Assembly: GCA_041659765.1 (NCBI GenBank)
Contig: JBAZXR010000001.1
Span: 467,338-531,337, forward strand
Direction of reading: 5' to 3'
Source: Patescibacteria group bacterium
GTDB lineage: Bacteria > Patescibacteriota > Patescibacteriia > UBA9934
DNA length: 64,000 nt
The notes under the pieces were generated by a model. It was given only the letters and a program-made list of their open reading frames with translations. It was not told where the DNA came from and did no database searches. Made by a program: the position numbers and the translations under genes. Positions 3,211 to 45,576 of the stretch are shown here, piece after piece (position 1 is the first letter of the stretch; every line of letters starts with the position of its first letter).

Positions 3211-3981
3211 TTAAAAGAAGTGCCGTTCTGATGTTTTCTTGCAAATATCGTAGGCTTCCTCTGCCGTATCCACAATCCTAACCAAATCTAGATCTTTTCT
3301 ATCAACGGCGTCCATCTTAGCATAAACCTCACTCTGAATCCAGTTCCATAGACCGCCCCAAAACTCCTTACCGACCAGGACGATGGGGATGTGTTCTGAC
3401 TTGCCAGTTTGGATCAACGTAATAATTTCAAACATCTCATCAAGCGTCCCGAACCCGCCTGGAAAAAAGACGTAGGCCTGGCTAGAAGCAGCCAGCATCA
3501 CCTTCCGGGTAAAGAAATAATAAAAGGCCTTGCTGTCAGTCACGTATGGATTGATTCTTTGCTCTTTAGGCAACTGAATGTTAAGACCAACGGAACGAGC
3601 TCCAACTTCAAATGCCCCTTTGTTAGCCGCCTCCATGATGCCAGGCCCGCCGCCAGTCACCACCGTAAAGCCTCCCTTGCCAAGCAAGGCGCCAAGTTTA
3701 ACCGCCTCTCCGTACCAGCGCTGGCCCGGCGGGATACGCGCCGAACCAAAAACTGAAACCTCTTTTTTTGTAGTAGACAAAAACTGGAAGCCCTCAACAA
3801 ACTCCGCCATGATCCGAAAAATTCGCCACGTGATATCACTCATGCGTGGCGGCGCACCTAGGTCACGACAAATTTTCTTTTCCTCATCCGTAAGCGGTAT
3901 CCTAGCGTGGGGATCATGCTGTTTCCCGCTCACAGATTTTGAGCCTCCGAACATATCCATACGGTAACTATTGTAACACAA
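3211..3981 (-). CDS. LOG family protein (cytokinin riboside 5'-monophosphate phosphoribohydrolase-like, TIGR00730)
   Basis: Motifs [17 protein letters not shown] and [13 protein letters not shown] typical of the LOG/lysine-decarboxylase-like Rossmann family; true start may be the internal MDMFGG. Confidence 0.8.
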
Positions 3982-4018: not shown

Positions 4019-6091
4019 CTAGTGTGAGTTGAGAGCTGACCGGGTCTTCATGTTCGTCATGTTCACCGGGAAAGCAGTGTCAATCTCTTTTCCTAGCGTA
4101 AATTTCTTATAGAAGGCTGGGGACACGTCAATCACGTAGTCTGCCCAGTGAGTGCCAAACACATATTCGGCCGTCATCTCATTAGGAACCTCTCTTAGAA
4201 TGGTATTGCCAGAAGCGTCATTCTCCAGGGCGTACACTTCGGTAGCGCTCTGAATTTTGACGAGAACTGTTCCGGCCTTCGGCAAGACGAGAGACCCCAT
4301 TGGATAATTCGCCAAAGCTTCATCCGGCAAGGTCTTCACTACGTCCCATGAATCCTGGTAGGTGAAATAAGTTTGTTCGTCGATCAATACATGGCGCACC
4401 ATATCAGCACTCACGTAGTAGACGGTGGACCAAGAAGTTCCGCGAATATAATCGCCGGCCATGACGCCATTACCATCAACCAATGCGCTGTCAGTGGTAC
4501 CGAGCACCTGGGCTGGCGGGGCAACTGGGGTGATTACCGCCGCTGGTGCCGGGTCAATACCTGGAAGATTCGGAGCAATGTAACCGCTACCACCCCGACT
4601 ACCACCAGAAGACTGGTTTGTAGTGAAAGTAATGGTACGACGCGCTGTCCGATTGCCACGCAAGTCTGTCATGTCAAGCACTACGCCCCTGCGCATTGCT
4701 GCACCAATCTGTATGTGATACGTGTTATTAATCAGCAAATCTGTGTCCGGATTTAATGTCACAACAGGACCAAAGCCCCCAACTATACTGGATTGTTCCT
4801 GCAAACTAACGGAAGAAGAAGCAATGGAATCTGTTGAGATATCCTCCGAGAAAGTGAGCGCTAAATCTGACGACAAATTAGCCAGATTGCCACCGTCTGC
4901 AGGCGTTGATGACACAAGAACCGGAGCGGCTCCGTCAAAAACCTCTAACGTGGCATAAAACTGCTGATAGGCCCGGGACTGGTTGCCACTTGAATCAGTA
5001 AGCAGGAAGTCTGGACCATCAGTTACATCCGCAATAGAGAAAGCTGAACCAGCTCCCGTAGAAACTACAGAAGATTCAACCAACGGCAAACGGATCGTAG
5101 AGGAATCAACCGTAATCAGGTCAGTCGAGTCATTACCAAAACTTACACCGGCAAAACCACCATTTCCTACAATCATCAGGGAATTTGGTGCGAGCGAGCT
5201 CGAAGACGCACTCACGGTCTCCGTCAACTCAAGATCAAGGCTGTCAATCATGCCATCGGCATCACCATCAAGGTAAGTCAAAGACTTCATGAGCGGCTTA
5301 GCCAAGTCAACAACTGAAGCCTGGGGCTGTGCGCCCACGTTCAAATCAGGGTTCAAGAAGACATCGGACGCGCTATAAGTAGGCGTCGTAGCTAAGGCGA
5401 AGGCGCCAGAATCATCATGCGTGTCAATAGCTGAGCCTTCGCTCAACAGAACGGAAACCCATTTCATGTCTACACCAATTTCAAGATTACCGCTGATACC
5501 GTCTGGGCCAACGGCAGCTACGGTCGTACCCGTAAAATCACCGGCATTAGCTATTTCAAAACTACTAACAGAAAAGAAGGCTCCATCGGAAAGCGCCTCA
5601 GAATACCGGACAATCAAATGGTCGATTTTTCCGTTCCAGTTATCATCCGTATACTCGATTGAGCGGATCACCGGACCGGCGCCGTCTGTAGCCGTCACTG
5701 AACCGTCGGCAGAAGAACCGGAAGTATCAAGAACCCCGTTCACGAGAACGTTACAGGTAACACCGGTATCCATATATATCACACTCTCTTCAGTGATAGA
5801 GAGTGAGACGGAGTCAGGTCCAGTTGAAGCAGCTGCGGTAACTGGAAAAGCTGGAGTGAAAAAGGTGCAGCTAGCGGTAGAAAAATCCGAGGCGGCCAAA
5901 GAAGTCGCGTCAATCGGGCCGGAAAAAGTGACATCAATGTGATCGAGTCGACCGTTATGATCAGCGTCTCGCATGACAGCGCCGGAAACCGTGGTGACAG
6001 AAACCGCGAACGCCGCAGAAGGCAGCGCGGCAACGCCTGAACCCACTAACATCAATGAAAAAATACCGGCGATAGATTTACGAATATTCAT
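4019..6091 (-). CDS. Secreted/surface repeat protein (signal peptide; three ~100-aa internal repeats; S/T/D/G-rich)
   Basis: Start at internal [29 protein letters not shown] (signal peptide) rather than track start 6127; repeats [17 protein letters not shown] / [17 protein letters not shown] / [16 protein letters not shown]. Confidence 0.7.
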
Positions 6092-12120: not shown

Positions 12121-12603
12121 TTATCGGCTGAGTGAGATAGGTGCATTTTCTGGGTCACAAGCACCCGCAGTCAGCGTACCGGAAGCATTCCTGATCAAAT
12201 AGTAATCAGTCTTGGTGGCGGCGCCGCTGGTTGGGTCCATCGGGACGCTGCCGAGGTAGCCAGCTGTTTGCAAGGCTGTAAGATCTGCACAAGCAGCGGC
12301 CGTGGTCTGAGCCGTACAACCTGTGTCACAACCGATAGCATCAGTTCCAATCACGTAAGCCGTTCCCGCAGTCATCGCGGCAACCGAAGCTATATAGGCA
12401 CCGCCGTTATCAACCTGCGCCGTCTTCAGCGCAGCCACGATGTTTGTAACATCACTTGAACGACGTGAATCGCGGGCATCGGCGAAACGCTTAGCTGGGT
12501 TAAGAGCTACGAAAACTGCAGCGGCCAGCACCACGATAATAGCGATTACAATCAATAACTCAATAAGAGTGAATCCTTTTCTCTCCCGCTGCACGCTCTT
12601 CAT
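12121..12603 (-). CDS. Type IV (major) pilin with prepilin N-terminal cleavage/methylation domain
   Basis: KGFTLIELLIVIAIIVVLAAAV class III signal (G|FTLIE), Cys pairs in C-terminal region. Confidence 0.8.
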   Translation of the reverse strand: MKSVQRERKGFTLIELLIVIAIIVVLAAAVFVALNPAKRFADARDSRRSSDVTNIVAALKTAQVDNGGAYIASVAAMTAGTAYVIGTDAIGCDTGCTAQTTAAACADLTALQTAGYLGSVPMDPTSGAATKTDYYLIRNASGTLTAGACDPENAPISLSR

Positions 12604-12740
12604 AAAAATTGATTCGTTTAAGAATAAACATATTATAATCTATTTTTACCGGTATCAGGCGCAGCTGCTGTTTAATGTGCATAACCTCATGCACACCCGC
12701 CCTCACCAAAAGCCAGTCTAGCAACTATAATGATACGTAT
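12604..12740. promoter_or_regulatory. AT-rich divergent promoter region between pilin and pilB; palindromic ATTATAAT -10 at about 12632-12639
   Basis: attataat is its own reverse complement, so it gives a consensus TATAAT in both directions; second TATAAT at about 12723. Confidence 0.4.
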
Positions 12741-14045
12741 ATGGCCACCGAAAAAAAACCTAAAATCATCAAATTAATCACCAAGGGGCCTAAAACAACG
12801 AATGGCAACCTTCCATCAAAAAAAGACGTTGAAGATCTCATTGCCAAAGCAATTGCCGGTACTACATCAGATGCAGCCGTTAGGCTCTTTGAGATGATCA
12901 TGATCTTTGCTCATGCTGCCCGCGCCTCAGACGTTCATCTTGAACCGTGGAAGGATCACGCTATTATCCGCATTAGAATAGACGGCATTCTTCATGATGA
13001 ATTCACTCTGGATACCGATCTCCATACCCAGTTAGTAGCCCGTATAAAGATTCTAACCCGGATGCGAACCGACGAGCATCATGGCCCGCAAGATGGAAGA
13101 TTTAAATTTACTTCTCCGCTCGGAGACGTGGATGTTCGCGTCTCAATTCTGCCCGATTCCTTTGGCGAAAAAGGGGTTTTACGCCTCCTCTCCAGCCAAT
13201 CGCATCAATTAACGCTTGAACAGCTTGGTTTTTGTGAAGAAGATTTGGCTCGTATCACTAGAGCCATAAAAAAACCTTGGGGCATGATTCTAGCCACCGG
13301 TCCAACGGGCAGCGGAAAAACTACGAGTATTTACGCGATTCTTGAAGTAATTAACAGGCGAGAAGTAAATATCGCCACCATTGAGGATCCAGTTGAATTT
13401 GAAATCCCCGGAGTCAATCAAAGCCAGGTTGATCACGTGGCTAAACTGACATTTGCTACCGGCCTACGAGCGCTATTGCGACAAGATCCGGATGTTATCA
13501 TGGTCGGAGAAATTAGAGACGAGGAAACTGCAAAAATTGCGGTCAATGCGGCCCTGACCGGACACAAACTCCTATCCACTCTCCACACCAATAACGCCGC
13601 CACCAGCATTCCGCGGCTTATCGATATGGGCGTTGAGCCTTTTCTTATCTCGTCTACATTTATCTGCGCCATCGCCCAAAGACTGGTTAGACGCGTCTGC
13701 AAAGATTGCGTAGAAACACAAAACTTGGGAATTGCTGAAGGAAGTAAAATGTTGCACAAACAAACAGCCGATGCTCTTTTCAAAGATAGGAAGACCATCG
13801 AAATCGCCAAAGCTAAGGGCTGCACAAAATGCAACGATACCGGGTATAAAGGGCGAATCGGTATTTATGAGGTACTAGAAAACTCCGTCGCCATTCAAAG
13901 CCTCATCAATAAGCGGGCAACGAGTGATGAAATTCAAGAGGTAGCAAAAAAAGAAGGCATGACCACTATCATGGAGGATGGCGTGCGAAAAGTCCTAACC
14001 AAGGAGACCACGATAGAAGAACTTAGTCGCGTCATGGAAGAGTAA
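12741..14045 (+). CDS. pilB: Type IV pilus assembly ATPase PilB (GspE family, short form lacking N-terminal GSPII domain)
   Basis: Walker A GPTGSGKTT, Asp box, His box, tetracysteine CKDC...CTKC; start taken at MATEKKPK (track start 12675 is a likely extension). Confidence 0.85.
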   Translation: MATEKKPKIIKLITKGPKTTNGNLPSKKDVEDLIAKAIAGTTSDAAVRLFEMIMIFAHAARASDVHLEPWKDHAIIRIRIDGILHDEFTLDTDLHTQLVARIKILTRMRTDEHHGPQDGRFKFTSPLGDVDVRVSILPDSFGEKGVLRLLSSQSHQLTLEQLGFCEEDLARITRAIKKPWGMILATGPTGSGKTTSIYAILEVINRREVNIATIEDPVEFEIPGVNQSQVDHVAKLTFATGLRALLRQDPDVIMVGEIRDEETAKIAVNAALTGHKLLSTLHTNNAATSIPRLIDMGVEPFLISSTFICAIAQRLVRRVCKDCVETQNLGIAEGSKMLHKQTADALFKDRKTIEIAKAKGCTKCNDTGYKGRIGIYEVLENSVAIQSLINKRATSDEIQEVAKKEGMTTIMEDGVRKVLTKETTIEELSRVMEE

Positions 14046-14048
14046 GGT

Positions 14049-15131
14049 ATGAACAGCAAAAAAAAATCTGGAGTGAGTCTTTACACTAAACTCTCAGTTC
14101 AGCTGTCGCTGACTGAGCAGCTTCTGCTGACTAAATATTTAGCTGTGCTGCTCAAATCTGGACTACCGATTGATGATGCGATTGAAATTCTTTCGAACCA
14201 GTCAAAAGGCTCCTTAAAAACGATCTTAACCAGCCTCAGGGAATCTGTTAGAAGCGGCAACACACTGGCTGACGGCCTGGAAAAATTTCCTCATGTTTTC
14301 TCCACGACCTTCATAAACCTGATTCGAGCCGGCGAAAACTCAGGAACGCTCCAGGGAAATCTTCAGCAACTAGCTGATCAGATGCAAAAAGAACACGACC
14401 TGCGGGTAAAAATCCGGAGTGCCATGATGTATCCGTCCATTGTTTTCATGAGCGCTATCACTATCTGTACTGGAATTGTTGTCTTTGTCCTGCCGAATAT
14501 TACCGCGCTCTTCAAATCTCTTGATGTTCCGTTGCCTTGGACTACCAAAGTTCTCCTCTGGATTGCCTTCGTAGTCCAACATTATGGAATTTTGATTGCC
14601 ACGGTTACAATCGCGTCAATCGTCATATTCATGTTTATTCGTAATTTATCTTTCGTAAAACCAATAACGCATTTCTTAACCCTCCGTGCGCCAGTTTTAG
14701 GAAAAATCGTCAGAAATACTAATCTAGCCAGAATCATGCGACTGCTCGGCACCCTTCTTAACACCGGTATGGCGCTTGACGAAGCCCTGCCGGTAACCGT
14801 TTCTGTAATTAAAAACCACTACTACAAACGCCTCTTTACTAAAATGGAAACTACTGTTTCCGAAGGAAATACTATTACCGTAGCTCTCGCCTCGAATAAT
14901 TATCTTGTTCCGCCCATCGCCCTGCGACTAATCAGAGTCGGCGAGGAAACTGGCACCCTAGGAGAAATGCTCATCTACCTAGCTAATTTTTATGAACAAG
15001 AAATTGATGAAGCGACAAAAAACGTCACCACGCTCATTGAACCAATCATGATTGTCGGGATCGGACTCATGGTTGCCTTGCTGGCCTTCTCTATCATCTC
15101 GCCTATTTACCAAGTAGTCGGCTCTATCTAA
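14049..15131 (+). CDS. pilC: Type IV pilus inner-membrane platform protein PilC (GspF family)
   Basis: Two GspF repeats, three TM segments; immediately follows pilB. Confidence 0.85.
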   Translation: MNSKKKSGVSLYTKLSVQLSLTEQLLLTKYLAVLLKSGLPIDDAIEILSNQSKGSLKTILTSLRESVRSGNTLADGLEKFPHVFSTTFINLIRAGENSGTLQGNLQQLADQMQKEHDLRVKIRSAMMYPSIVFMSAITICTGIVVFVLPNITALFKSLDVPLPWTTKVLLWIAFVVQHYGILIATVTIASIVIFMFIRNLSFVKPITHFLTLRAPVLGKIVRNTNLARIMRLLGTLLNTGMALDEALPVTVSVIKNHYYKRLFTKMETTVSEGNTITVALASNNYLVPPIALRLIRVGEETGTLGEMLIYLANFYEQEIDEATKNVTTLIEPIMIVGIGLMVALLAFSIISPIYQVVGSI

Positions 15132-15132
15132 C

Positions 15133-15627
15133 GTGAACAATCCAAAAGGCTTCACATTTCTAGAGATCATCATCACCCTCGGGGTCTTCGGGATTCTTTT
15201 TTCAATCTCCGGAATAGCCTTAACAAAATTTCAACAATCCGTAGCCTCAAGTGCCAGCGACCGCGAGATCCTCCATATTCTATCAACCGCCGCCCGTAAA
15301 GCCCGCCACGGCCAAGGGGGCGCTCCTTGGGGGGTTTATATTCCCTACAGTGAAAGCACGAGAGCAACAACGACCGTCACGGTCTTTTGCGGAGCCACCT
15401 ACGCCACCAGAGATATAACCTGTGACGACGTCTACACGGTTAGCAACAATATCCATTTTTTGGCCGTAGATTTTAGTGGAGCAGCTCCAGACACTACAAA
15501 TGATCATGAAATAGTTTTTAACCCGCTCTCTGGGTCTACCGCCCAATACGGCTCAATCTCACTTGGCTGGTATAACACTACTCGCTCGTTGTCCATTAGT
15601 CCGGACGGCTTTGTAAATAGGCAATAA
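15133..15627 (+). CDS. Minor pilin / pseudopilin (prepilin-type N-terminal domain)
   Basis: KGFTFLEIIITLGVFGILF prepilin motif. Confidence 0.7.
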   Translation: MNNPKGFTFLEIIITLGVFGILFSISGIALTKFQQSVASSASDREILHILSTAARKARHGQGGAPWGVYIPYSESTRATTTVTVFCGATYATRDITCDDVYTVSNNIHFLAVDFSGAAPDTTNDHEIVFNPLSGSTAQYGSISLGWYNTTRSLSISPDGFVNRQ

Positions 15628-15630
15628 TCT

Positions 15631-16512
15631 ATGCGTAACTCCAGACGTTCTATTCAAAGAGGCTCATTGCTTCTTGAAGCCATCGTGGCAATTGGCGCCA
15701 CCGCATCTTTCATGACGGCGTTGATCGGTTTTGTAGTTGTCGCCAACCGTGGCAGTGACCGAGCCCAAGAAATCCAACAGTCGTTATGGAATACAAATGA
15801 AGGCGCCGAAGCGCTTAGAACCATCTCCTTCGCCAGCCTAACAGATACGCTAACCGGCGCCCTGACCTTCGTAGCTCCCGCCTGGGCATTAGCCACTAAC
15901 GGACCGCAAACCTTAGCCGATGGTTCAACTCGAATAGTTAAAATATACCCAGTCTACAGAGATGCGTCCTGTAATGTGGTGGTCTCTGGAGGCACTGCTG
16001 ATCCAGATAGCAAAAAAATTATTAGCGAAACTAGCTGGATCGATACCGCTGGCAGAACCCATACCACCTCAACCACTACGCTGCGCACAAACTGGCTAAA
16101 CCCGACTGGCACTTGTTTTGCCCCTAGACAGGCTGGACAGGTCAGCTTCGCCGTTAATGCAGCCCAATTCTATGGAGGCAAACAGCTTAGAGAACTTTAT
16201 TTCACCAACACCGGTGGAACGAGCGTGACAATCGATAAAATAACCTTCACCTGGAGCAACGGTTCTGAATTCGATCAATTGTTCATCGATAACTCAAAAG
16301 TCTGGTCAACCTCTGGTCCGGGTACGCCCACGGGAGTCGATGTTTATTCAGGAACCACGCTCGACATCCAAAATTTCACCATGGCGCCAGGACAAACTTC
16401 GCAAATCACCAAGGGACAATTTGAAGATCTAATGTCGGGTGCTTCAATGACCATGTCCGTAACCTTTGCCGACGGCTCGGTCTTCACTTCAGGTTCGTTC
16501 AATCCCCTTTAG
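15631..16512 (+). CDS. Minor pilin-like protein
   Basis: RGSLLLEAIVAIGATASF prepilin-like motif (G|SLLLE). Confidence 0.6.
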   Translation: MRNSRRSIQRGSLLLEAIVAIGATASFMTALIGFVVVANRGSDRAQEIQQSLWNTNEGAEALRTISFASLTDTLTGALTFVAPAWALATNGPQTLADGSTRIVKIYPVYRDASCNVVVSGGTADPDSKKIISETSWIDTAGRTHTTSTTTLRTNWLNPTGTCFAPRQAGQVSFAVNAAQFYGGKQLRELYFTNTGGTSVTIDKITFTWSNGSEFDQLFIDNSKVWSTSGPGTPTGVDVYSGTTLDIQNFTMAPGQTSQITKGQFEDLMSGASMTMSVTFADGSVFTSGSFNPL

Positions 16513-16513
16513 T

Positions 16514-17065
16514 ATGAACAACAAAGGCACAACTCTGCTTGAGACCGTTCTCTACATTGGCATCGTGATGATCGTCTTGCCGACCTTCGTAATGTTTCTA
16601 ATAAACCTGTGGCAGACTTACACCTTGCTTGATGCTCGTTCTAGAATAGAACAAACTGCCTCAGTAGTGTTTTTGGAACTACAAAACTCACTCACTGAGG
16701 CTGATGCAATTAGCATTAGTACCTCTACCCTGGCAAATGACAGCGGAGTTTTAAAATTTCTTGATGCCACGGGACAACTAGTAACCATTGACCGACCAAC
16801 CGTAGCGGTGACCTTAGTTGGAGCACCGCAAAATGTACGGAGATTACGGATGCAAAAAGGCACAAACCCAGCAACCTATCTGACAGATCCGGAGATAGAC
16901 GTGACCCAATGGCGCATAGAGGCAATTCGGACCGACGCGACCCTATCCGGTCTAAGAATAAGTTACGATATGGCCATGCTGAATCCCGGGATCGGCGCCT
17001 ATCGTCATTCCGCCTTCTCGGCTGATACTACCTTTGCTCTCTCCGGACACACTATAGAAAATTAA
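16514..17065 (+). CDS. Minor pilin-like protein
   Basis: Start at MNNKGTTLLETVLYIGIVMIVL (KG|TTLLE) right after upstream stop; track ORF 16466 is an extension. Confidence 0.6.
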   Translation: MNNKGTTLLETVLYIGIVMIVLPTFVMFLINLWQTYTLLDARSRIEQTASVVFLELQNSLTEADAISISTSTLANDSGVLKFLDATGQLVTIDRPTVAVTLVGAPQNVRRLRMQKGTNPATYLTDPEIDVTQWRIEAIRTDATLSGLRISYDMAMLNPGIGAYRHSAFSADTTFALSGHTIEN

Positions 17066-18493: not shown

Positions 18494-19234
18494 TTACAAT
18501 GCCCTATTTTTCAAAAAATCCTCAACCCGTGCGAGTCTCTCGTGCGTCCCGGAATCAAACCAAGGTTCTGTACCGTGATAGAAGCCGAGTGTGCGGCCGG
18601 ATTTCGACAAAGCTGGCCAAACATGTGTTTCGTGAGAAAGCGGCATCTCATCTGGCGCGATGTCGAGCACGTCCGGCGTCATAATATACCAGCCAGAAGA
18701 AACGAACACGGAGGGCGACGCAGCACGCAACGGCTCGGCGAGGCTTCTATCAACGTACGCATTGAGCTTAGTCTTATCGGTATTCGTATCGAGAATCTCG
18801 TAGTTGTTGGCCGTCTCGCTCGGAATAGAAATACCGGCAATAGTCGCCGTGGCCCCAGTTTCCTCGTGACGTTTTAAAAAAGCCGAAACATCAATCCAAA
18901 AGAGATTATCCGCGTTGGCTACAATAAACTTTTCGTCGAGCTGAGATTTATCGACTAACTTCATCCAGCCGCCGGTGCCCATCATTTCTGGCTCGCGCAG
19001 GTATGTCAGCTCCAGGCCCATGGACGAACCGTCGCCGTAGGTTTCCTCAATGAGGTGGCCGAGATAGGCAGTCGAGATCGCCACGTTCGTAATGCCCGCA
19101 GCTTTCAAATGTTCAAGGACGTACGTCATCATTGGCTTGCCCAAAATTGGCACCAAGGGCTTAGGCATGGTGTCGGTCAGGGGGGCGAGACGCGTACCTC
19201 GACCGCCGGCAAGTAAGATGGCTTGAATGGGCAT
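18494..19234 (-). CDS. Sugar-phosphate nucleotidyltransferase (mannose-1-P guanylyltransferase / G1P-NTP transferase family)
   Basis: LLAGGRGTRLAPLTDTMPKPLVPI nucleotidyltransferase signature. Confidence 0.75.
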   Translation of the reverse strand: MPIQAILLAGGRGTRLAPLTDTMPKPLVPILGKPMMTYVLEHLKAAGITNVAISTAYLGHLIEETYGDGSSMGLELTYLREPEMMGTGGWMKLVDKSQLDEKFIVANADNLFWIDVSAFLKRHEETGATATIAGISIPSETANNYEILDTNTDKTKLNAYVDRSLAEPLRAASPSVFVSSGWYIMTPDVLDIAPDEMPLSHETHVWPALSKSGRTLGFYHGTEPWFDSGTHERLARVEDFLKNRAL

Positions 19235-19241
19235 AACGAAA

Positions 19242-19314
19242 CGTAAAGTATTAAAGAATAAAGTGTTAAAGCCACTCAGAAACTTTAATACTTTAATCTT
19301 TACGCTTTATTCTT
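19242..19314. repeat. Inverted arrays of pentanucleotide repeats (TAAAG x4 / CTTTA x4) forming a ~18-bp imperfect hairpin
   Basis: cgTAAAGtatTAAAGaaTAAAGtgtTAAAG ... aaCTTTAataCTTTAatCTTTAcgCTTTAtt; lies between PAP2 stop and 8 nt upstream of the nucleotidyltransferase start codon. Confidence 0.6.
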
Positions 19315-19321
19315 ATAACAA

Positions 19322-19813
19322 TTAATACATTACCCCAAACCCAATCCCCAGGACAAACCCAACCAGTACATCGCCAAAGTAGTGCACGCCGACCACAATA
19401 CGCCCCAGGCCAATCAACATCTCGGCGATCACAAACAAAATAGCGAGAGAAACGAGGATCAAGGGATTTGGAAAATGTACTTGGAGCAAAATGACGGTCG
19501 CGACTGCTGCAGAAATGGTCGCATGCCCGCTCGGGAGGGAGTACGTGCGCCACCACATTTTGTAGCCGGTCTTCTCCTCAAACTTGGGCCGCGCGCGTCC
19601 CACAATCGCTTGCGTGCTGATGGTCAAAATCCAAGACGAAAAAGCGATCAGCGGCAACACCCACCAAGCTAACCAGCCAAGTAAGCCAAGCGCCACCCAC
19701 GCTATTACATAAACATTAATCAGCTGGACGGCAAAGAAATACCACAATTTATAGTGTGGCTTGCCCCAAGCTTCAATCCGTGTGCTGAGCGGTTTGTCTA
19801 AGTTGAAATCCAT
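19322..19813 (-). CDS. PAP2-family membrane phosphatase (undecaprenyl-diphosphatase-like)
   Basis: PAP2 motifs KxxxxxxRP (GRARPKF), PSGH, and GRIVVGVHYFGD. Confidence 0.75.
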   Translation of the reverse strand: MDFNLDKPLSTRIEAWGKPHYKLWYFFAVQLINVYVIAWVALGLLGWLAWWVLPLIAFSSWILTISTQAIVGRARPKFEEKTGYKMWWRTYSLPSGHATISAAVATVILLQVHFPNPLILVSLAILFVIAEMLIGLGRIVVGVHYFGDVLVGFVLGIGFGVMY

Positions 19814-19895
19814 GTCAGCAGAATATCATTTCTTCCCTCTTTTCAAAAGCCCTCGGGCGTAGCCCTAAGTACATCTATCAGTCCCTACGGGCGAG

Positions 19896-19929
19896 CCCCG
19901 CCGCCAGGGTATTGGCGACGGAGCGTTTT
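19896..19929 (-). repeat. Conserved 3' stem-loop element, copy 1 (ccccgccgccagg-gtat-tggcgacggagcgtttt)
   Basis: 34/35 nt identical to 20833-20867; on the transcribed (minus) strand forms CCGUCGCCA-AUACCC-UGGCGGCGG hairpin about 26 nt downstream of the stop of gene 19958..20773. Confidence 0.6.
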
Positions 19930-19957
19930 GAGCGATTAGAAAGTTTCCCTGTGGTCT

Positions 19958-20773
19958 TTACTGATTAGTCGTGCAAAACGTCCCGTTTGTTGTTTCACCC
20001 CCAATATAAGACGGCGTGTACCAGATTCGAGCGATAACGCACGCATTGTCCTTCCACTCGAATGCGACAGGGCCAAGGCCTCCCGGAGAATTAGAATCCC
20101 CTTCCTGAATAAACGTGAAGCCTTGCGTGGTGAACGGCGTATTCATTTCGGAAAGCCTACCAATACTGTCCGTCGTACCAGTTAACAAATCGAAAATATA
20201 GAGGTCTGGAGCTGGTGTATCGCCCGTAGAACGCGAATCATCAAACGGGATGAAAGCGATCTTAGTTTGATCTGGAGATACTCTGACTTGAGAAGAAGCA
20301 AGATGCATGCCTGGTGCGAAGGCAATAACTTCCTGGGGTATAACATCACTCTTTGTGAGATCAATTGTGTATACCTTCACTGGATTAAAATCACTTCCTT
20401 CGCCAAGTAAATTGACGAATACTCGCCCGTCGTATCCGATCTGCGGAACAGCAACGAGCTCAACAAAGCTGTCTCCGCGGTCGAGAATTAGCTTCTTCTC
20501 ACCCGTTGTCCTATCAAGCTGATAGAGCTTATTTCCAAACGGAGCATCAGGATATGTTTTCTCTACAAACAACAATGGTGGAACTGCACCCTTGCCTGTC
20601 AGACCATCATCCCCATAGGGAATCGCCGTCTTCCCGGGGATTGCCGGTGCGCCAAGTTTCACCATGGCATAGCCGAGCGTAGCGGTTTCAACAACCATGA
20701 GCGCGACCAACATCATGATAATGATGGCGTGGGTTCCGTTCTTGTGGCCTGTGGCCATTGGCATTTCGGCCAT
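19958..20773 (-). CDS. Signal-anchored secreted protein, beta-propeller-like body (paralog A of cassette pair)
   Basis: MAEMPMATGHK...IIIMMLVALMVVETATLGYAMV anchor; N-terminal ~45 aa similar to 20904..21530 protein, rest unrelated. Confidence 0.6.
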   Translation of the reverse strand: MAEMPMATGHKNGTHAIIIMMLVALMVVETATLGYAMVKLGAPAIPGKTAIPYGDDGLTGKGAVPPLLFVEKTYPDAPFGNKLYQLDRTTGEKKLILDRGDSFVELVAVPQIGYDGRVFVNLLGEGSDFNPVKVYTIDLTKSDVIPQEVIAFAPGMHLASSQVRVSPDQTKIAFIPFDDSRSTGDTPAPDLYIFDLLTGTTDSIGRLSEMNTPFTTQGFTFIQEGDSNSPGGLGPVAFEWKDNACVIARIWYTPSYIGGETTNGTFCTTNQ

Positions 20774-20776
20774 ATA

Positions 20777-20794
20777 GAAGAAGAAGAAGAAGAA
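20777..20794. repeat. (GAA)6 / (TTC)6 trinucleotide repeat in 5'UTR of gene 19958..20773
   Basis: gaagaagaagaagaagaa, 3 nt upstream of the start codon and immediately after the mini-ORF stop; paralog B has an unrelated 13-nt spacer here. Confidence 0.7.
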
Positions 20795-20830
20795 TTACTT
20801 GTTCTCAGTATACATGAGCGCAACCTTAAA
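20795..20830 (-). promoter_or_regulatory. Conserved 5' module: extended -10 TGTATACT plus mini-ORF ATGTATACTGAGAACAAGTAA (MYTENK*)
   Basis: Near-identical to 21544-21580 (the C-terminal REFMYTENK* of cca); both are followed by a gene starting M[A/D]EM. Confidence 0.5.
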
Positions 20831-20832
20831 CG

Positions 20833-20867
20833 CCCCGCCGCCAGGATATTGGCGACGGAGCGTTTTT
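20833..20867 (-). repeat. Conserved 3' stem-loop element, copy 2
   Basis: ccccgccgccaggatattggcgacggagcgttttt, about 37 nt downstream of stop of gene 20904..21530. Confidence 0.6.
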
Positions 20868-20903
20868 AATGCGAGAGTAATTTCCTCTTCCCTGGACATG
20901 ATG

Positions 20904-21530
20904 CTATTTCGCCTTGAATGTTTTTATAATTGCGCTCGTTTCTGCAAGCATCTCAAACTGCTTTGGATCATCAATTCCTCCGCGGCCAGCGTTATCTCCG
21001 CCACCGACGTAGTAATAACTGAAGCCATTCTTTGAGGTAATGAACGTATTCGGGTAATCAATAATCATCGGATCCTTCGCGTAGGCGTCGGCAACCACCT
21101 GAATAGTGATGTATCGAGCAGGATCGTTCTCAGCCGTAAGAGTTGCCTGGTACGTCATCTGTGTGACCTCAGGAGAGTAGTCCTCCTTTTCATGGATCAT
21201 TCCCCAAGATGTGGGGAGCACAAGAGAAAAACTGTACACATCGCTGGTGTATTCAGTTCCCTGTGGCGTGATTCGAATATATGAGTGCAGACCGCGAGAT
21301 TCATCGCCGGTCAAGGTATCGATATTTGGCGGAGTGTCTGACGCTACAATCGGCGAAGTGGTCGTTGATGGAACAGTCTTTACGATACTGTTCTTTGCCG
21401 GCGCAGGCGTTGCTGCTGGCTTAGACACTATATAGCCGAGGGCTACCGCCTCGAGTACAACCAAAACCACTAGCATAAGGCTCACGAGCATCCAAGGGCT
21501 TCTGTGGTGCATTGAAGACATTTCGTCCAT
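20904..21530 (-). CDS. Signal-anchored secreted protein (paralog B of cassette pair)
   Basis: Start taken at MDEMSSMHHRSPWMLVSLMLVVLVVLEAVALGY, 13 nt after cca stop; track start 21578 would overlap cca. Confidence 0.6.
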   Translation of the reverse strand: MDEMSSMHHRSPWMLVSLMLVVLVVLEAVALGYIVSKPAATPAPAKNSIVKTVPSTTTSPIVASDTPPNIDTLTGDESRGLHSYIRITPQGTEYTSDVYSFSLVLPTSWGMIHEKEDYSPEVTQMTYQATLTAENDPARYITIQVVADAYAKDPMIIDYPNTFITSKNGFSYYYVGGGDNAGRGGIDDPKQFEMLAETSAIIKTFKAK

Positions 21531-21543
21531 ATAAGGATAAAAA

Positions 21544-22986
21544 TTATTTGTTCTCAGTATACATGAACTCCCGCACAAAAACGCGGGCGTCGTCTGGAGT
21601 TTCGAGCTGGCCTTCGTCGCGAGCTGACTCTACCGCCTTCATAACCTCGCCAATCTTCGGACCGGGGGTCATATTGAATTCGGCCATCAGTTCAGCGCCG
21701 GTGAGAAGCGGTATTTTAGCCGCGGATTCTAGGTCAAACTTTTTCACCGTTTCACGTAAGTACAAACCGGGCGTGTAGTCTACTTTAGCTGCGTCAGTCC
21801 CCCGTCCGCGAGTGTCAGACTCGGTCACCGCTAGGAAGGCCTCGAGCGAGGTACCGCCCAAGCGCTTGATTAACCGGCGCACGGCGTTGGCGTATTGTTT
21901 TTCATTGAGTTCGCCTTTTTGAAAAGAACGATAAAGCATGGTCGGCTTCAGGTGATCACGAACAATGGCGGCTACGTCATGGGTAACGTCATCGCCAAAG
22001 GTAAATTTCTGCAAGAAAGATTTAGTCAGCGAAACGCCAGCTTCTTCGTGACCCAGAGCGCGAATTTTACCGTCGATTGTTTTGGTAACCAGTGGTTTGC
22101 CGATGTCATGGCACACCGCCCCAAGCATCGCGATCGTGTCGTCGGGGTCAACCTTTACGTCGACCCTCCCCCGCACGATCCGCGCGCATTCGTCTACGGC
22201 GAGCAAGGTGTGAATCCAAACATCGCCCTCGGGGTGCCAGTCGGGCTCTTGGGGAGTGCCAATCATCGCGAACAACTCCGGGTAGTAGCGTTCAATGATG
22301 CCGAGGTCGCGCATGAGTGTGAAACCGATCGAAGGCTTTGGAGATTTGAGCAACAGCTTTTTCCATTCATCAGTGACACGTTCCTTCGAGAGTTCGCCGA
22401 GCGCCCCGTCTTCCACCATCTGCTTCATGAGCGCGAAGGTCTTTGGTTCGACCGAGAGACCGAACCGTGCCGCAAACTGCACGCCGCGAAAAACACGGAG
22501 AGGATCCTCAACAAATGTCTTCTCGTCGACGACACGCAAAAGTTTATTCGCGAGGTCAACACGTCCGCTGTACGGGTCGATCGTTTCGTTCGTCGACACA
22601 TCCATCGCAATCGCGTTGATGGTAAAGTCGCGCCGACGCAAGGCTGCCTCGACGGAGAGTGACGGGTCACCGATCACTTCGAACCCTTTGTGACCCTTCC
22701 CTGTTTTTGACTCTGTTCGAGGAATGGCCACATCGAGCATCCTCCCCTCATCGAGCGAAACTTTGTACACACCAAATGAGGCGCCGACAACATCAACTTG
22801 CGTAAAAAGTTCTCGCAAAATCTTTTCGAGCGCGTCCGGTTCGATCCCGTAGACCTCAACATCAGCATCTTTCGTCGGCACGCCGAGGAACAGGTCGCGA
22901 ACTGCCCCGCCAACCAAAAGAGCGCGCGGAACTTTCCCGGAGAGTGTAGAGACGGCGTCTTTTAGGATTTTATCTGATAGTTGCAT
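21544..22986 (-). CDS. cca: CCA-adding tRNA nucleotidyltransferase with HD domain
   Basis: LVGGAVRDLFLG...DADVEV polymerase-beta head; HDIGKP HD motif. Confidence 0.85.
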   Translation of the reverse strand: MQLSDKILKDAVSTLSGKVPRALLVGGAVRDLFLGVPTKDADVEVYGIEPDALEKILRELFTQVDVVGASFGVYKVSLDEGRMLDVAIPRTESKTGKGHKGFEVIGDPSLSVEAALRRRDFTINAIAMDVSTNETIDPYSGRVDLANKLLRVVDEKTFVEDPLRVFRGVQFAARFGLSVEPKTFALMKQMVEDGALGELSKERVTDEWKKLLLKSPKPSIGFTLMRDLGIIERYYPELFAMIGTPQEPDWHPEGDVWIHTLLAVDECARIVRGRVDVKVDPDDTIAMLGAVCHDIGKPLVTKTIDGKIRALGHEEAGVSLTKSFLQKFTFGDDVTHDVAAIVRDHLKPTMLYRSFQKGELNEKQYANAVRRLIKRLGGTSLEAFLAVTESDTRGRGTDAAKVDYTPGLYLRETVKKFDLESAAKIPLLTGAELMAEFNMTPGPKIGEVMKAVESARDEGQLETPDDARVFVREFMYTENK

Positions 22987-23083
22987 ATTCTGTCTCCACT
23001 CTGAGCCATGCGAAGAGTCCGACCCTCACCGGTGAAAGTCGGATCCTTCGCTCTCGCTCAGGATGGATGCGGGATCGTCGAGT

Positions 23084-24697
23084 CTATAGCAAGGGAGTAC
23101 CGGTCATGTCAGGCGGTTGCGGTATTCCAAGAATGGCAAGCATGGTTGGGGCAACGTCAGCGAGCATGCCAACGGGTGGCATAAGGGAGAGATCGCCATT
23201 AGGCACGTCACCGGCAATTGACTGTTTGCCCTCAAACTGATTGCCGATAATAAAGAACGGAACAGGATTTGTGCTGTGCTCTTTATCCATGGCGTGTGTC
23301 TGGAGGTTCAGCACTTCTTCCGCGTTGCCATGATCAGCCGTGATCAATAAGACGCCATCGTGCTTCAAAATGGTTTCCACTAGCCGGCCAACGCACGCGT
23401 CGACAGCTTCAACGGCCTTGATCGTCGCCTCTAAGTTACCCGTATGCCCCACCATGTCTGGGTTAGCAAAGTTACCAATAATGACGTCATAGTTTCCGCG
23501 CTCGATCTCCGCGATCACTCGGTCAGTCACGGCCACGGCACTCATTTCTGGCACGGCGTCATAACTCGCCACGTGAGGCGATGGAATAAGTGCGCGATCT
23601 TCGTTAGGAAAGGCTTCCTCCCGCGTACCGTTCATGAAGAAGGTAACGTGCGCGTATTTTTCTGTTTCGGCAATGTGAAGTTGAACGAGTCCAGCCTTAG
23701 AAATAGTCTCCGCCAGTGAATTCTCGATGACGATTGGCGGGAAGGCAACGTCTACCGGCAATCCCTTTTCATAATCAGTCATGGTGACAAAAACAAGATC
23801 CTTGATGTACTCACGCGTAAACTTTTCAAAAGTCGGCAACACAAAGGCCCGCGTTAGCTCACGTGAACGATCTGGGCGAAAATTAAAGAAGAGCACAGCA
23901 TCACCCATATTTACGGTCGCGACCGGTTTGTTACCTTTCACAATTACTGTGGGCGGGAATTCTTCATCGTAAACCTCTTTTGAATAACTGTCTTGAAGTG
24001 CAGCGAAAGGATCTTCAGAAGTTTTATCGGACTGGCCAAGGGCGATAGTGTTATAAGCCTTCTCTACGCGATCCCAACGGTTGTCACGATCCATAGCAAA
24101 GTATCGCCCCATAAGCGAGGCGATCTCGCCCACTCCGTACTCCTTCATCTTGGCATCCAAATTGCGGATGAAATCAATTCCTGAGTTATAAAGGGTGTCG
24201 CGACCATCAAGAATAGCGTGTACGGCAACTTTTTTGATGCCTGCTTCCTTACACATGCGCAAAAGCGCGTAACAATGATCATCGTACGAGTGGACTTTAC
24301 CACTCGAAACAAGACCGAGGAGATGCAGGGTGCCACCACTTGATTTCACTGTGGAGATCGCTTTGGCGAGTGCGGGGTTAGACGCAAACGAACCGTCTAC
24401 CACGGCCTTGTTAATTCTCGGTAAAGTTTGGTAATACACACGGCCCGCACCAATCGCCAAGTGGCCCACTTCCGAGTTCCCCATCTCGCCCCAAGAAAGT
24501 CCCACCTCCTCGCTCGAAGCCCGCAAGGTCATGACCGGGTAGCGGCTGGTCAGCATGTCAAATGTCGGTTTTTTGGCCCGAGTGATGGCGTTTCCTTCAG
24601 AATCCGGGGCAACGCCAAAACCATCAAGGACAAAAAGGACAGCTGGCCGCGGACGGCCACCGGGATTTGGTGAATCCATACCGAACCATTTTAGCAC
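23084..24697 (-). CDS. gpmI: 2,3-bisphosphoglycerate-independent phosphoglycerate mutase
   Basis: VLFVLDGFG, NSEVGHLAIGAGR, DHGN motifs; start may be internal M at 24679. Confidence 0.85.
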   Translation of the reverse strand: MLKWFGMDSPNPGGRPRPAVLFVLDGFGVAPDSEGNAITRAKKPTFDMLTSRYPVMTLRASSEEVGLSWGEMGNSEVGHLAIGAGRVYYQTLPRINKAVVDGSFASNPALAKAISTVKSSGGTLHLLGLVSSGKVHSYDDHCYALLRMCKEAGIKKVAVHAILDGRDTLYNSGIDFIRNLDAKMKEYGVGEIASLMGRYFAMDRDNRWDRVEKAYNTIALGQSDKTSEDPFAALQDSYSKEVYDEEFPPTVIVKGNKPVATVNMGDAVLFFNFRPDRSRELTRAFVLPTFEKFTREYIKDLVFVTMTDYEKGLPVDVAFPPIVIENSLAETISKAGLVQLHIAETEKYAHVTFFMNGTREEAFPNEDRALIPSPHVASYDAVPEMSAVAVTDRVIAEIERGNYDVIIGNFANPDMVGHTGNLEATIKAVEAVDACVGRLVETILKHDGVLLITADHGNAEEVLNLQTHAMDKEHSTNPVPFFIIGNQFEGKQSIAGDVPNGDLSLMPPVGMLADVAPTMLAILGIPQPPDMTGTPLL

Positions 24698-25041: not shown

Positions 25042-25890
25042 TTATGCACGCACCGCGATCCGCAATTTTGCACTGCGCGATCTTGGATTAGTTCGTATCT
25101 CTTCCTCGCTGGCCTCGATCGGCTTTTTGGTTGTGCCCTTCAAGACTGCGCTGTCCTTGAAAAAGTTTTTGACCATTCGGTCTTCCAGCGAGTGGAACGT
25201 GATGATGGCAATTCTGCCCCCCGGATTCAGTATCTGTTCAGCGGCTTTAAGTCCGCGCTCAAGCTCGCCAAGTTCATCATTGACCGCAATGCGCAAGGCT
25301 TGAAAAGTTCGAGTCGCCGGATGAATTTTACCGCGCCCCTTTGAGAGGCTGGCGATAAAATCCGCGAGTTCAAGCGTGGTCGCGAACTTCTTCTCTTTCC
25401 GTTTGTCCGTGATTGCCTTAGCTATCTGGTTCGCGAAAGGTTCCTCGCTATAGATCCGCAGCATCGCTGCAATCTCTTCGCGCGGTGCACCATTCACAAT
25501 GTCCGCGGCCGTCTCCCCCTTTGACGCGTCATAACGCATATCAAGCGGTCCGTCCTTCATGAAGGAAAACCCGCGCGTGGCGTCATCAACGTGCATGGAC
25601 GAGAAACCGAGGTCGAACAGAATGGCATCTGCCTTTTCCACGTGCGCCACCATGTTCCCGAAAGAATCATGGACATAGGTCACGCGGTCAGAGCTACCCT
25701 TCATGCCGTCACAAGCAATTTCGAGATTTCTTGCATCTCGATCAAAGCCGATGAGCCGGCCGCTTGGTGCGGTGGCTGCGAGCATGAGTGCGGCGTGCCC
25801 TCCTCCGCCAAGCGTGCCGTCAATGACGGTTTCGCCCGGCCGTAGCGCCAAGCCTTCTAATACCTCTTTCGCGAGAACGGGAATGTGCAT
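25042..25890 (-). CDS. rsmH: 16S rRNA (cytosine1402-N4)-methyltransferase RsmH (MraW)
   Basis: MHIPVLAKEVLEGL..., DGTLGGGGHA SAM motif. Confidence 0.9.
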   Translation of the reverse strand: MHIPVLAKEVLEGLALRPGETVIDGTLGGGGHAALMLAATAPSGRLIGFDRDARNLEIACDGMKGSSDRVTYVHDSFGNMVAHVEKADAILFDLGFSSMHVDDATRGFSFMKDGPLDMRYDASKGETAADIVNGAPREEIAAMLRIYSEEPFANQIAKAITDKRKEKKFATTLELADFIASLSKGRGKIHPATRTFQALRIAVNDELGELERGLKAAEQILNPGGRIAIITFHSLEDRMVKNFFKDSAVLKGTTKKPIEASEEEIRTNPRSRSAKLRIAVRA

Positions 25891-25923
25891 AAGGGCAAAA
25901 CGGGCTAGTGGGCAAAATGGGCA

Positions 25924-26349
25924 TTAAATTCCTCCCAATTGCTCTGCAATGGCGCCGGAATCGGCTTCGGCCTTCTTTGCGTATGCATTCCACGCATCCT
26001 CGTCCCAAATTTCCAAACGATTCTGAATACCGACCACGACCGCGTTCTTTTTTAGTCCGGCGAATGTCCGAAGATATTCGGGAACTACAAAGCGTCCGTG
26101 GCTATCTAACTCGACGTCCATTGCGCCTGCGAGCATAAAGCGCGCAAAAGCTCTAGAGTTGGCTTGTCCCAGGGGCAAACTAGCGATTTTTTCCGCCAGC
26201 TTTCCCCACTCTTCCAAGGGCAAGACAAACAGTGAAGTGTCGAGGCCTCGCGTCACCACCGCTCCTTGCGCTAAGGCCCCGCGAAACTTCACCGGAACGC
26301 TGAAGCGTCCCTTGTCGTCGATGGTGATGTGGTATTCGCCAATGAACAT
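25924..26349 (-). CDS. mraZ: Transcriptional regulator MraZ
   Basis: Two DXXXR repeats: ITIDDKGRFSVP and VELDSHGRFVVP. Confidence 0.9.
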   Translation of the reverse strand: MFIGEYHITIDDKGRFSVPVKFRGALAQGAVVTRGLDTSLFVLPLEEWGKLAEKIASLPLGQANSRAFARFMLAGAMDVELDSHGRFVVPEYLRTFAGLKKNAVVVGIQNRLEIWDEDAWNAYAKKAEADSGAIAEQLGGI

Positions 26350-38805: not shown

Positions 38806-38891
38806 GTAGAACTAGTATAGCAGAGGCCAAAGCTGCGCAGGATGGGGCAGCTAGACGCATAAATAGGCCTATGCTAGTATTCTTCGCGATT

Positions 38892-45509: not shown

Positions 45510-45576
45510 ATTGGGATCATTTTATCACCTAATTGCCTCCTGCGGGCAAATGGCATAGGCTTATCCGGGAGGTTTC

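Follow-up and report, generated by a model that had tools for sequence, protein, structure and literature searches.

The stretch of DNA considered here, called the window, is 64,000 nucleotides (nt) long and comes from a Patescibacteria group bacterium (contig JBAZXR010000001.1 of assembly GCA_041659765.1). The subject of this work is the slot between cca, which encodes the CCA-adding tRNA nucleotidyltransferase, and a gene for a PAP2-family phosphatase. In the window this slot holds two genes, B and A, whose products have unrelated mature bodies and whose upstream leaders and downstream hairpins are nearly identical. Coordinates in the cca-PAP2 region refer to the minus strand throughout, and the features are given below in their order along that strand.

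21544..22986, minus: cca, identified by the Pfam families PolyA_pol, PolyA_pol_RNAbd and HD and by synteny; its last seven codons (MYTENK and stop) are leader copy 1
21542..21566, minus: leader copy 1, TCATGTATACTGAGAACAAATAATT, with a -10-like TATACT over the cca stop codon
21531..21543, minus: spacer before gene B, TTTTTATCCTTAT, degenerate, pyrimidine-rich and without a Shine-Dalgarno (SD) sequence
20904..21530, minus: gene B, 208 amino acids (aa), with an N-terminal transmembrane (TM) anchor at aa ~12-35, a Pro/Thr linker and a conserved ectodomain
20795..20899, minus: 34-codon relic open reading frame (ORF); codons ~1-23 are a relic of the 5' end of nth, and the end, LMYTENK and stop, is a copy of the cca tail
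20832..20866, minus: hairpin copy 1, 35 nt; the stem reaches about 20865-20828 and the tail is GUUUAAGG
20795..20817, minus: leader copy 2, TCATGTATACTGAGAACAAGTAA, the promoter-like element of gene A
20777..20794, minus (GAA on the plus strand): (TTC)6 microsatellite, filling the gap from the TAA to the TAT-ATG of gene A
19958..20773, minus: gene A, 271 aa, with a TM anchor (GHKNGTHAIIIMMLVAL..ETATLGY), a beta-propeller-like ectodomain and two near-invariant Cys
19894..19956, minus: second nth 5' relic, matching nth aa 3-23 by tblastn, including hairpin copy 2 (19895-19929) and with no intact nth behind it
19844..19894, minus: second stem-loop and then GGGCUUUUG, probably the terminator tail of gene A; a homologous sequence follows A in the relative L018
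19322-19813 (to 19828 with its promoter), minus: the PAP2-family phosphatase gene (Pfam PAP2), the downstream border of the slot; its leaderless-type promoter, also minus, reads TGATATTCT, then 6 nt, then ATG

The 21-nt leader (ATGTATACTGAGAACAA[A/G]TAA) occurs exactly twice in the 64 kb, at 21564-21544 and 20815-20795 (749 nt apart), and none is expected from 100 shuffles; a preliminary description of this DNA had likewise reported it twice. The copies share a block of ~25 nt (TCATGTATACTGAGAACAARTAATT), and past the spacers both continue with TATATGG[A/C]CGAAATG into a weakly similar anchor. The 35-nt hairpin is also present in two copies (20866-20832 and 19929-19895, 937 nt apart), with none expected by chance. 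These are identical at 34 of 35 positions, as first described, with coordinates then one base off, and the hairpin is predicted to fold with -31.4 kcal/mol (z -6.1). Across species, the leader is retained at 21/21 positions in L003 (Logan SRR22387838) and at 18-19/21 in L004 and L006, and the hairpin core is identical to that of L003 at 34/34. Since the elements are as well conserved between species as within this genome, the contrast drawn originally between fixed, near-identical flanks and variable bodies calls for no concerted evolution.

The nature of the leader is suggested by distant relatives. In L014, the cca of which is 55% identical, cca ends earlier and the element (GAGTATACTAAGAGCAATTCTTAATC) is intergenic, lacks an ATG, and lies 52 nt before the start of the A homolog, so that what is conserved is the TATACT element and not a peptide. 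The MYTENK leader peptide considered at the outset was consequently ruled out: the seven-codon mini-ORF is, in front of A, the tail of the 34-codon ORF (20899-20795) and is not conserved as an ORF in L014. In L019, a -10-like TTATTATAA overlaps the cca stop codon, 7 nt ahead of the ATG of A. The conservation of TATACT as non-coding sequence in L014 suggests that it acts as a promoter. At both A and B, a TG directly adjoins TATACT, which lies 33 nt (A) and 25 nt (B) from the ATG; the sigma-70 extended -10/leaderless arrangement, TGnTAnnnT 5-12 nt before the start codon, is found at neither. Elsewhere in the window, TGnTAnnnT ends 5-12 nt before the ATG of 9 of 58 genes, compared with 0.8% of control ATGs (examples are 3961-3980, 19814-19828, 38806-38825 and 45510-45530), while an SD-like motif precedes only 7 of the 58. 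Leaderless mRNAs therefore seem common in this genome, a pattern from which A and B depart with their 33-nt and 25-nt pyrimidine-rich leaders.

The hairpin can be traced to a neighboring gene. In L003 these 34 nt lie within an intact HhH-GPD/endonuclease III (nth) gene and encode ALKTLRRQYPGGG, its N-terminal helix, and the hairpin thus corresponds to codons ~10-22 of nth, which is intact in this one relative. A tblastn comparison of the L003 Nth protein with the window matches aa 1-26 at 20899-20822 (E 1.8e-5) and aa 3-23 at 19956-19894 (E 1e-3), identifying both window hairpins as relics of the nth 5' end; the remainder of nth was found nowhere in the 64-kb window by tblastn. At the downstream end of the slot, L003 carries the intact gene (4134-4850), and the window (19814-19957) only a ~60-nt relic. 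The stem-loop may in addition serve as the terminator of the gene upstream of it. The homologous stems of L003 (that after B), L006 and L018 lead into UUUUUGG, and among six homologous stem copies nearly all differences fall in the loop or are C/U changes opposite G, which keep a G-U pair. In the window, the copy after A is followed by a second hairpin and then CUUUUG.

The 34-codon ORF begins 4 nt past the stop codon of B and reads MSREEEITLALKTLRRQYPGGGAFKVALMYTENK followed by a stop, with the nth 5' relic joined in frame to the copy of the cca tail; it is annotated as a gene by the gene caller in the Logan assembly. Its composition points to a duplication/recombination junction and is what one would expect of the tandem placement of a unit bounded by the cca tail and the nth 5' end. 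The original proposal that the flanks arose by a local duplication involving the cca tail is thereby borne out. As at other junctions of segmental duplication or illegitimate recombination, there is a novel joint between the distal end (nth 5') and the proximal end (cca tail), and both ends are present as direct repeats. In contrast to tandem units that are homologous throughout, these share only the ~25-nt leader, the start region, the ~40-aa anchor and the 35-nt hairpin. Because the bodies are non-homologous, either the event joined two different slot alleles or genes, or one body was replaced afterwards. The nth relic belonging to B, M[ST][SR]E[ED]EI[ST]LALKTLRR, accompanies B in both the window and L003, indicating that this unit predates the split of the two genomes (synonymous divergence, dS, ~1). 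In the window the unit is followed by a cca tail, (TTC)6 and A, and in L003 by orf114, a third anchored gene (encoding P0006) and nth; the relic downstream of A is similar to the nth that L003 keeps intact (TAAT.CGCTCAAAACG...). Unequal or illegitimate exchange between chromosomes with different alleles is tentatively favored over tandem duplication followed by body replacement, as allele replacement is documented at this slot (see below).

The proteins encoded by A and B, as well as P0006, resemble one another only at their N-termini. Profile-profile comparison confines the homology among the three to the anchor, with or without the linker. The ~45-aa N-terminus described initially as the same in A and B does consist of homologous anchors (hhalign probability 98.5%), yet within the window genome these are only 38% identical. 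AlphaFold2 predicts a single TM helix in each (aa 12-32 in A, aa 12-35 in B), and A, B and P0006 all lack Cys, and hence a lipobox, within their first ~60 residues. For the bodies, the initial view that they are unrelated held: BLASTP gives no match between them, and a profile of 35 A-family sequences aligns to B over 35 anchor columns only.

Anchors of the ...HHGALPLIxAMLGVFLVLETVALGYVV type occur in many members of the A family, so the anchor appears to be native to A. The two anchors of L003 differ mainly at synonymous sites, which argues that the anchor peptide is kept by selection and not by recent conversion. Gene conversion within the genome was likewise ruled out as the source of the flank identity, given these mainly synonymous differences and the fact that the flanks are just as similar from one species to another. 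The anchor of B in the window (21396-21530; MHHRSPWMLVSLMLVVLVVLEAVALGY) is nearer to distant A-family anchors than to the local GHKNGTHAIII type, while L003 B (2160-2300) carries the local, A-like type, suggesting that anchors are swapped independently of bodies.

The anchor is confined to one place in each genome. A degenerate pattern (CAYGCNATHATHATHWBNATGYTNGYNGCNYT) that matched all known A-type cassettes was found only in two species genomes, one metagenome contig and gene A of the window, at one locus each. In a search of 5.8 billion protein sequences, P0005 and P0006, both from L003, were the only anchor-only matches; a 47-column anchor-only profile scored nothing against the same 5.8 billion proteins, probably a problem of short hydrophobic profiles. 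No silent cassettes were seen in the genome, metagenome and window scans. The further leader and hairpin copies that the preliminary description had led one to look for are absent elsewhere in the 64-kb window, and collections hold one anchor locus per genome. These results suggest not a dispersed family but a system confined to a single locus, the cca-PAP2 slot, where a genome has one or two anchor genes.

The rates at which the two bodies evolve are very different. The B ortholog P0005 of L003 is 81% identical to B overall. Its body has a nonsynonymous divergence (dN) of 0.031 at a dS of ~1.0 (dN/dS ~0.03), compared with a dN of 0.49 in the anchor; recent horizontal transfer of B was ruled out by this dS of about 1. 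No match to B was obtained in Pfam, NCBIfam, PHROGs or a PDB sequence search, P0006 has no family in Pfam or NCBIfam, and an AlphaFold2 model of B built from a two-sequence alignment is unusable (predicted local distance difference test score, pLDDT, 38). In contrast, A belongs to a family with 193 representatives at E <= 1e-3, about 75 of which are 240-300 aa long and match over most of their length. The protein database lists A as a hypothetical protein, Pfam and NCBIfam contain no family for it, and no PD40 match reaches threshold. A therefore represents an undescribed family of N-terminally anchored, beta-propeller-like, putatively extracytoplasmic proteins; two Cys residues, which at least 90% of 35 family members possess, fit an extracytoplasmic domain. 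A differs from the TolB/DPP-IV/PD40 propellers in that its domain is only about 200 residues, a partial or small propeller, and in that it has an N-terminal TM anchor, a conserved ET..LGY motif and no family above threshold.

Comparison across relatives indicates that the body of A is hypervariable between genomes and decoupled from its flanks. The A body is 25-44% identical in all 15 genome pairs, PAP2 is 37-90% identical, and the two identities are uncorrelated (Spearman rho -0.05). Between the window and its closest relative L006, iPGM is 93%, cca 85% and the NTP transferase 92% identical, and the A body 24-29%; between the window and the distant L014 (cca 55%), the A body is 40-43% identical. 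L013 and L018 are branches of one metagenome assembly, identical in their first 98 nt (cca tail), with anchors about 95% identical and PAP2 at 90.7% nt identity, and their A bodies are 34% identical; the A of L018 shares 87% identity with the A of L004, a more distant genome. This discordance is evidence for allele replacement at the slot.

The genes between cca and PAP2 in the relatives are as follows.

L006-L010 (P0004): A
L004, L005, L011, L012 (P0002): A, orf113
L013 (P0003): A
L018 (P0008): A, orf110
L014 (P0009), L019 (P0018): A
L017 (P0012): orf103, A
L003: B ortholog, orf114, P0006 (third body, same anchor), nth

In the window, iPGM (23084-24697, minus) precedes cca, and beyond PAP2 on the minus strand lie a nucleoside triphosphate (NTP)-transferase gene and then YceG. 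The single-A order iPGM-cca-A-PAP2-(NTP transferase)-YceG is found in L004/L005, L006-L009, L013, L014 and L019, and iPGM-cca-A-PAP2-YceG with one A gene appears from this synteny to be ancestral. Several slots also contain a small conserved protein of 103-114 aa without a family hit (L003 2920-3264; L004 10859-11188; L018 1043-1375; L017 482-793), which has its own leaderless-type promoter (TGnTATACTGAAAATGT-ATG), stands sometimes before and sometimes after the anchored gene, and is absent from the window. Between L004 and L013, PAP2 is 90% identical at the aa level and the adjoining YceG only 64%, indicating that the flanks of the slot are themselves mosaic.

The remaining element is the triplet repeat. 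(TTC)6 is the only perfect 1-3-nt repeat of at least 6 units in the 64 kb and lies 3 nt from the start codon of A. That copy A alone carries (GAA)6, read on the plus strand, is correct for the window, where B has its degenerate spacer instead; among relatives, the tract is general to A-type genes. B-type cassettes have degenerate pyrimidine spacers, that of L003 being TTTCTTTTTCT at the same place. Tract length does differ among close relatives, with the following states at the site.

Window and L001: (TTC)6
L004, L005, L011, L012: (TTC)10
L018: (TTC)14
L013: (TTC)27
L006-L010: (TTC)4 GTC TTC TT
L014: TTCTT only

From this distribution, (TTC)n between the cca stop and TAT-ATG appears to be ancestral to A-type genes. 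The 14- and 27-unit tracts come from one sample and follow an identical 98-nt upstream sequence, so length changes faster than point substitutions accumulate. Translation of, or read-through into, the tract was ruled out, as a TAA lies directly upstream and the other frames lack a start codon. Since triplet changes in an untranslated region (UTR) cannot shift the frame, a frame-shifting on/off switch is unlikely. The (UUC)6 leader has no significant predicted structure (z -1.5). By analogy with known repeats, (TTC)n would most likely tune the expression of A in a graded way, via UTR length or the distance from the stop or promoter to the start codon.

Taken together, these observations make it probable (roughly 0.6) that the locus is a recombination/duplication scar at a conserved yet variable cca-PAP2 gene slot of a Patescibacteria lineage. 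The slot would ancestrally have held one gene, A, whose ectodomain has been replaced or has diverged very fast between lineages. A would be transcribed from the TATACT at or over the cca stop, with a 5' UTR that in this clade is approximately a slippage-prone (UUC)n lacking an SD sequence, and would be closed by the GC-rich stem-loop that doubles as codons ~10-22 of the neighboring nth. A rearrangement with end-points in the cca tail and the nth 5' end has set a second anchored gene, B, upstream of A. Each gene would have retained a promoter element, an anchor and a stem-loop copy, giving repeated flanks around different bodies; the flanks would be alike because they are functional and conserved across species, and not because they are homogenised within the genome. 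Of these elements, the homologies, the junction, the gene order, the contrast between a hypervariable A and a conserved B, and the differing tract lengths are seen in the sequences themselves, and promoter and terminator activity, the path of the rearrangement and an influence of n on expression are inferred.

Several points weigh against this interpretation. In the proposed promoter, TGTATACT, the single base that follows TG in a canonical extended -10 (TGnTAnnnT) is missing, so the term extended -10 originally used there is too strong, and a simple consensus promoter/terminator scan called neither the leader nor the window hairpins. Similarity ends sharply at TCATG, which could reflect a mere duplication end-point and not selection. 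The window hairpins have no good U-run directly 3' of the stem. Assemblies of the same species are 100% identical clones with identical tracts (the Logan assembly SRR18595301, L001, matches the window at 100% identity across 7.4 kb), and L006 and L007, which are 99.2% identical, have the same interrupted, presumably stabilised tract. A very remote homology between the A and B bodies may exist, as the B model has a pLDDT of only 38. Finally, the direct scans covered the 64-kb window of a ~897-kb genome.

An alternative account is that of a plain, old tandem duplication, with A and B as paralogs whose ectodomains have diverged past recognition, flanks under constraint and a tract that is neutral slippage. 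It would explain why leader, start region, anchor and hairpin recur in the same order and why the junction ORF has exactly the expected structure; moreover, B and P0006 share the linker as well as the anchor, and A bodies do diverge to 25-40% identity. However, the A profile reaches B only in the anchor columns, A and B differ in length and in predicted secondary-structure pattern, and the slow evolution of the B body (dN 0.03 at dS ~1) means that a runaway divergence would have had to stop. Perfect tracts of 6-27 units that persist at one site across a dS of ~1 are also unlike neutral decay, and we regard this account as quite unlikely. Much the same standing is given to translational coupling, in which ribosomes stopping at the TAA of MYTENK would re-initiate or scan over an unstructured (UUC)n, with n setting the efficiency. 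In either cassette the same TAA closes an open ORF, with 13-21 nt left to the start codon; the relic ORF, starting 4 nt past the B stop, is open for 34 codons; no SD sequence is present, in a window where SD-like motifs are rare (7/58 genes); and the cca stop of L019 lies 7 nt from the A start. The arrangement in L014, where cca stops before an ATG-less element 52 nt from the A start, and the 84-nt distance produced by 27 repeats make coupling distinctly improbable. The possibility that the (TTC)n length differences are an assembly artefact, or a neutral polymorphism with no biological role, is rather unlikely. Short-read assemblies may mis-size repeats, identical clones have identical tracts, and a change by whole triplets in a UTR would not obviously turn anything on or off. 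Nevertheless, at 18-81 nt the tracts do not reach the length of typical reads or k-mers with flanks, the (TTC)14 and (TTC)27 branches are resolved within one assembly, each with unique downstream sequence, and independent assemblies reproduce the 6-unit, 10-unit and interrupted 4-unit forms, at the same site in at least five lineages.

The preliminary description had likened the locus to a variable-antigen system, and this comparison holds in part: a conserved promoter, 5' region and anchor do accompany three body types (A, B and P0006), with A hypervariable, while B is conserved (dN/dS ~0.03). Antigenic variation of the Mycoplasma type, in which a fixed scaffold receives bodies by gene conversion from a reservoir and (GAA/TTC)n is an on/off switch, would account for a scaffold and anchor conserved around three unrelated bodies, for A alleles discordant with their flanks and for the variable repeat, and (GAA)n is known to control vlhA expression in Mycoplasma gallisepticum (PMC6258824). 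It is nonetheless very improbable: the genome and metagenome collections show one anchor locus per genome, with only the two L003 proteins as anchor-only matches among 5.8 billion; no silent cassettes or lipobox Cys were seen; B is under strong purifying selection; and the tract lies downstream of the -10-like element and hence is no promoter spacer. The same copy number, one or two anchors per genome at a single slot, and the missing lipobox speak against the vlp/vsp-like multigene family or gene conversion first envisaged. Mycoplasma vlp/vsp genes are similar in their conserved 5' region, N-terminal export or anchor segment and divergent mature regions; their multigene families, lipoprotein signal peptides, internal repeats and promoter poly-A or invertase switches were not found here. 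A further reading treats the cca-PAP2 slot as a true contingency locus, in which a hypermutable (TTC)n sets the level of a hypervariable anchored propeller protein and the promoter-plus-anchor module is a landing pad on which new ectodomains (A alleles, B, P0006) are acquired through inter-strain recombination. This reading is tentative and, on balance, doubtful. If it were true, the surface protein might be used, for example, in host attachment or be exposed to phage, and this may be the first surface variation linked to a simple sequence repeat (SSR) described in the candidate phyla radiation (CPR); among the matches listed by keyword literature searches, none reports SSR-based or SSR-linked surface variation in Patescibacteria or CPR.

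Two bacterial systems illustrate how such a repeat might act. In the vlhA/pMGA system of M. gallisepticum, a GAA tract upstream of a variable surface-protein gene has conserved sequence on both sides, and its length varies among orthologs and strains (PMC6258824). The likeness is a perfect GAA/TTC tract just upstream of a variable surface-protein gene. The differences are that vlhA comprises dozens of lipoprotein genes versus one or two non-lipoprotein genes here, and that in vlhA about 40 nt separate the tract from the transcription start site downstream of it, with only 12 repeats active. In the slot, the tract stands between the -10-like element/stop and the start codon, with TTC on the coding strand and no known permissive length. 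In Haemophilus influenzae hmw1A, (ATCTTTC)n in the 5' UTR is a rheostat, and expression is inversely proportional to repeat number (PMC12721329). Similar to hmw1A, the SSR in the slot is pyrimidine-rich and would be transcribed in the 5' UTR of a surface-protein gene; the hmw1A repeat is a heptamer and not a trimer, acts through a long hairpin with a G-rich partner and RNase III, and belongs to an unrelated organism. Of the two analogies that with hmw1A is the closer, and an hmw1A-like rheostat would be the most likely mechanism here.

The genomes of Patescibacteria (CPR) are tiny, and many of these bacteria probably live attached to other cells. To our knowledge, almost nothing is established about how they vary their surface. 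Most of the puzzle posed by the locus comes down to known processes, namely a rearrangement scar, a conserved anchor module, a hypervariable slot and a slippage-prone UTR repeat. The features that remain of interest are the decoupling of A from its flanks, the presence of unrelated ectodomains on one promoter-and-anchor module, and a 4-to-27-unit repeat in a CPR genome. The locus thus offers an undescribed family of anchored propellers in a deeply conserved slot, with clear signs of allele replacement, and a repeat that differs among close relatives makes SSR-tuned surface expression in CPR a directly testable idea. It also carries a caution, as one rearrangement between conserved regulatory elements can give near-identical flanks with no cassette system.

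Other observations concern the surroundings of the slot. An Rfam scan of 19000-23000 returned no family. Comparison of the leader and hairpin with viral contigs, and of A, B, P0006 and orf114 with PHROGs, gave no match, so that nothing points to an origin from a phage or mobile element. At 12121-17065, only a few kb away from the slot, lies a cluster resembling type IV pilus/type II secretion systems (T2SS), which is syntenic in L004 and contains a pilin with an N_methyl motif, a T2SSE ATPase, T2SSF and further small ORFs; such a cluster may matter for DNA uptake and hence for allele exchange. Finally, between the stop of mraZ (25924-26349) and the start of rsmH (25042-25890), both on the minus strand, positions 25882-25923 contain four to five ~9-nt units, TTGCCCAYT/AGCCCGTT (TAATGCCCATTTTGCCCACTAGCCCGTTTTGCCCTTATG), which may be MraZ-type direct-repeat binding sites in an unusual placement.

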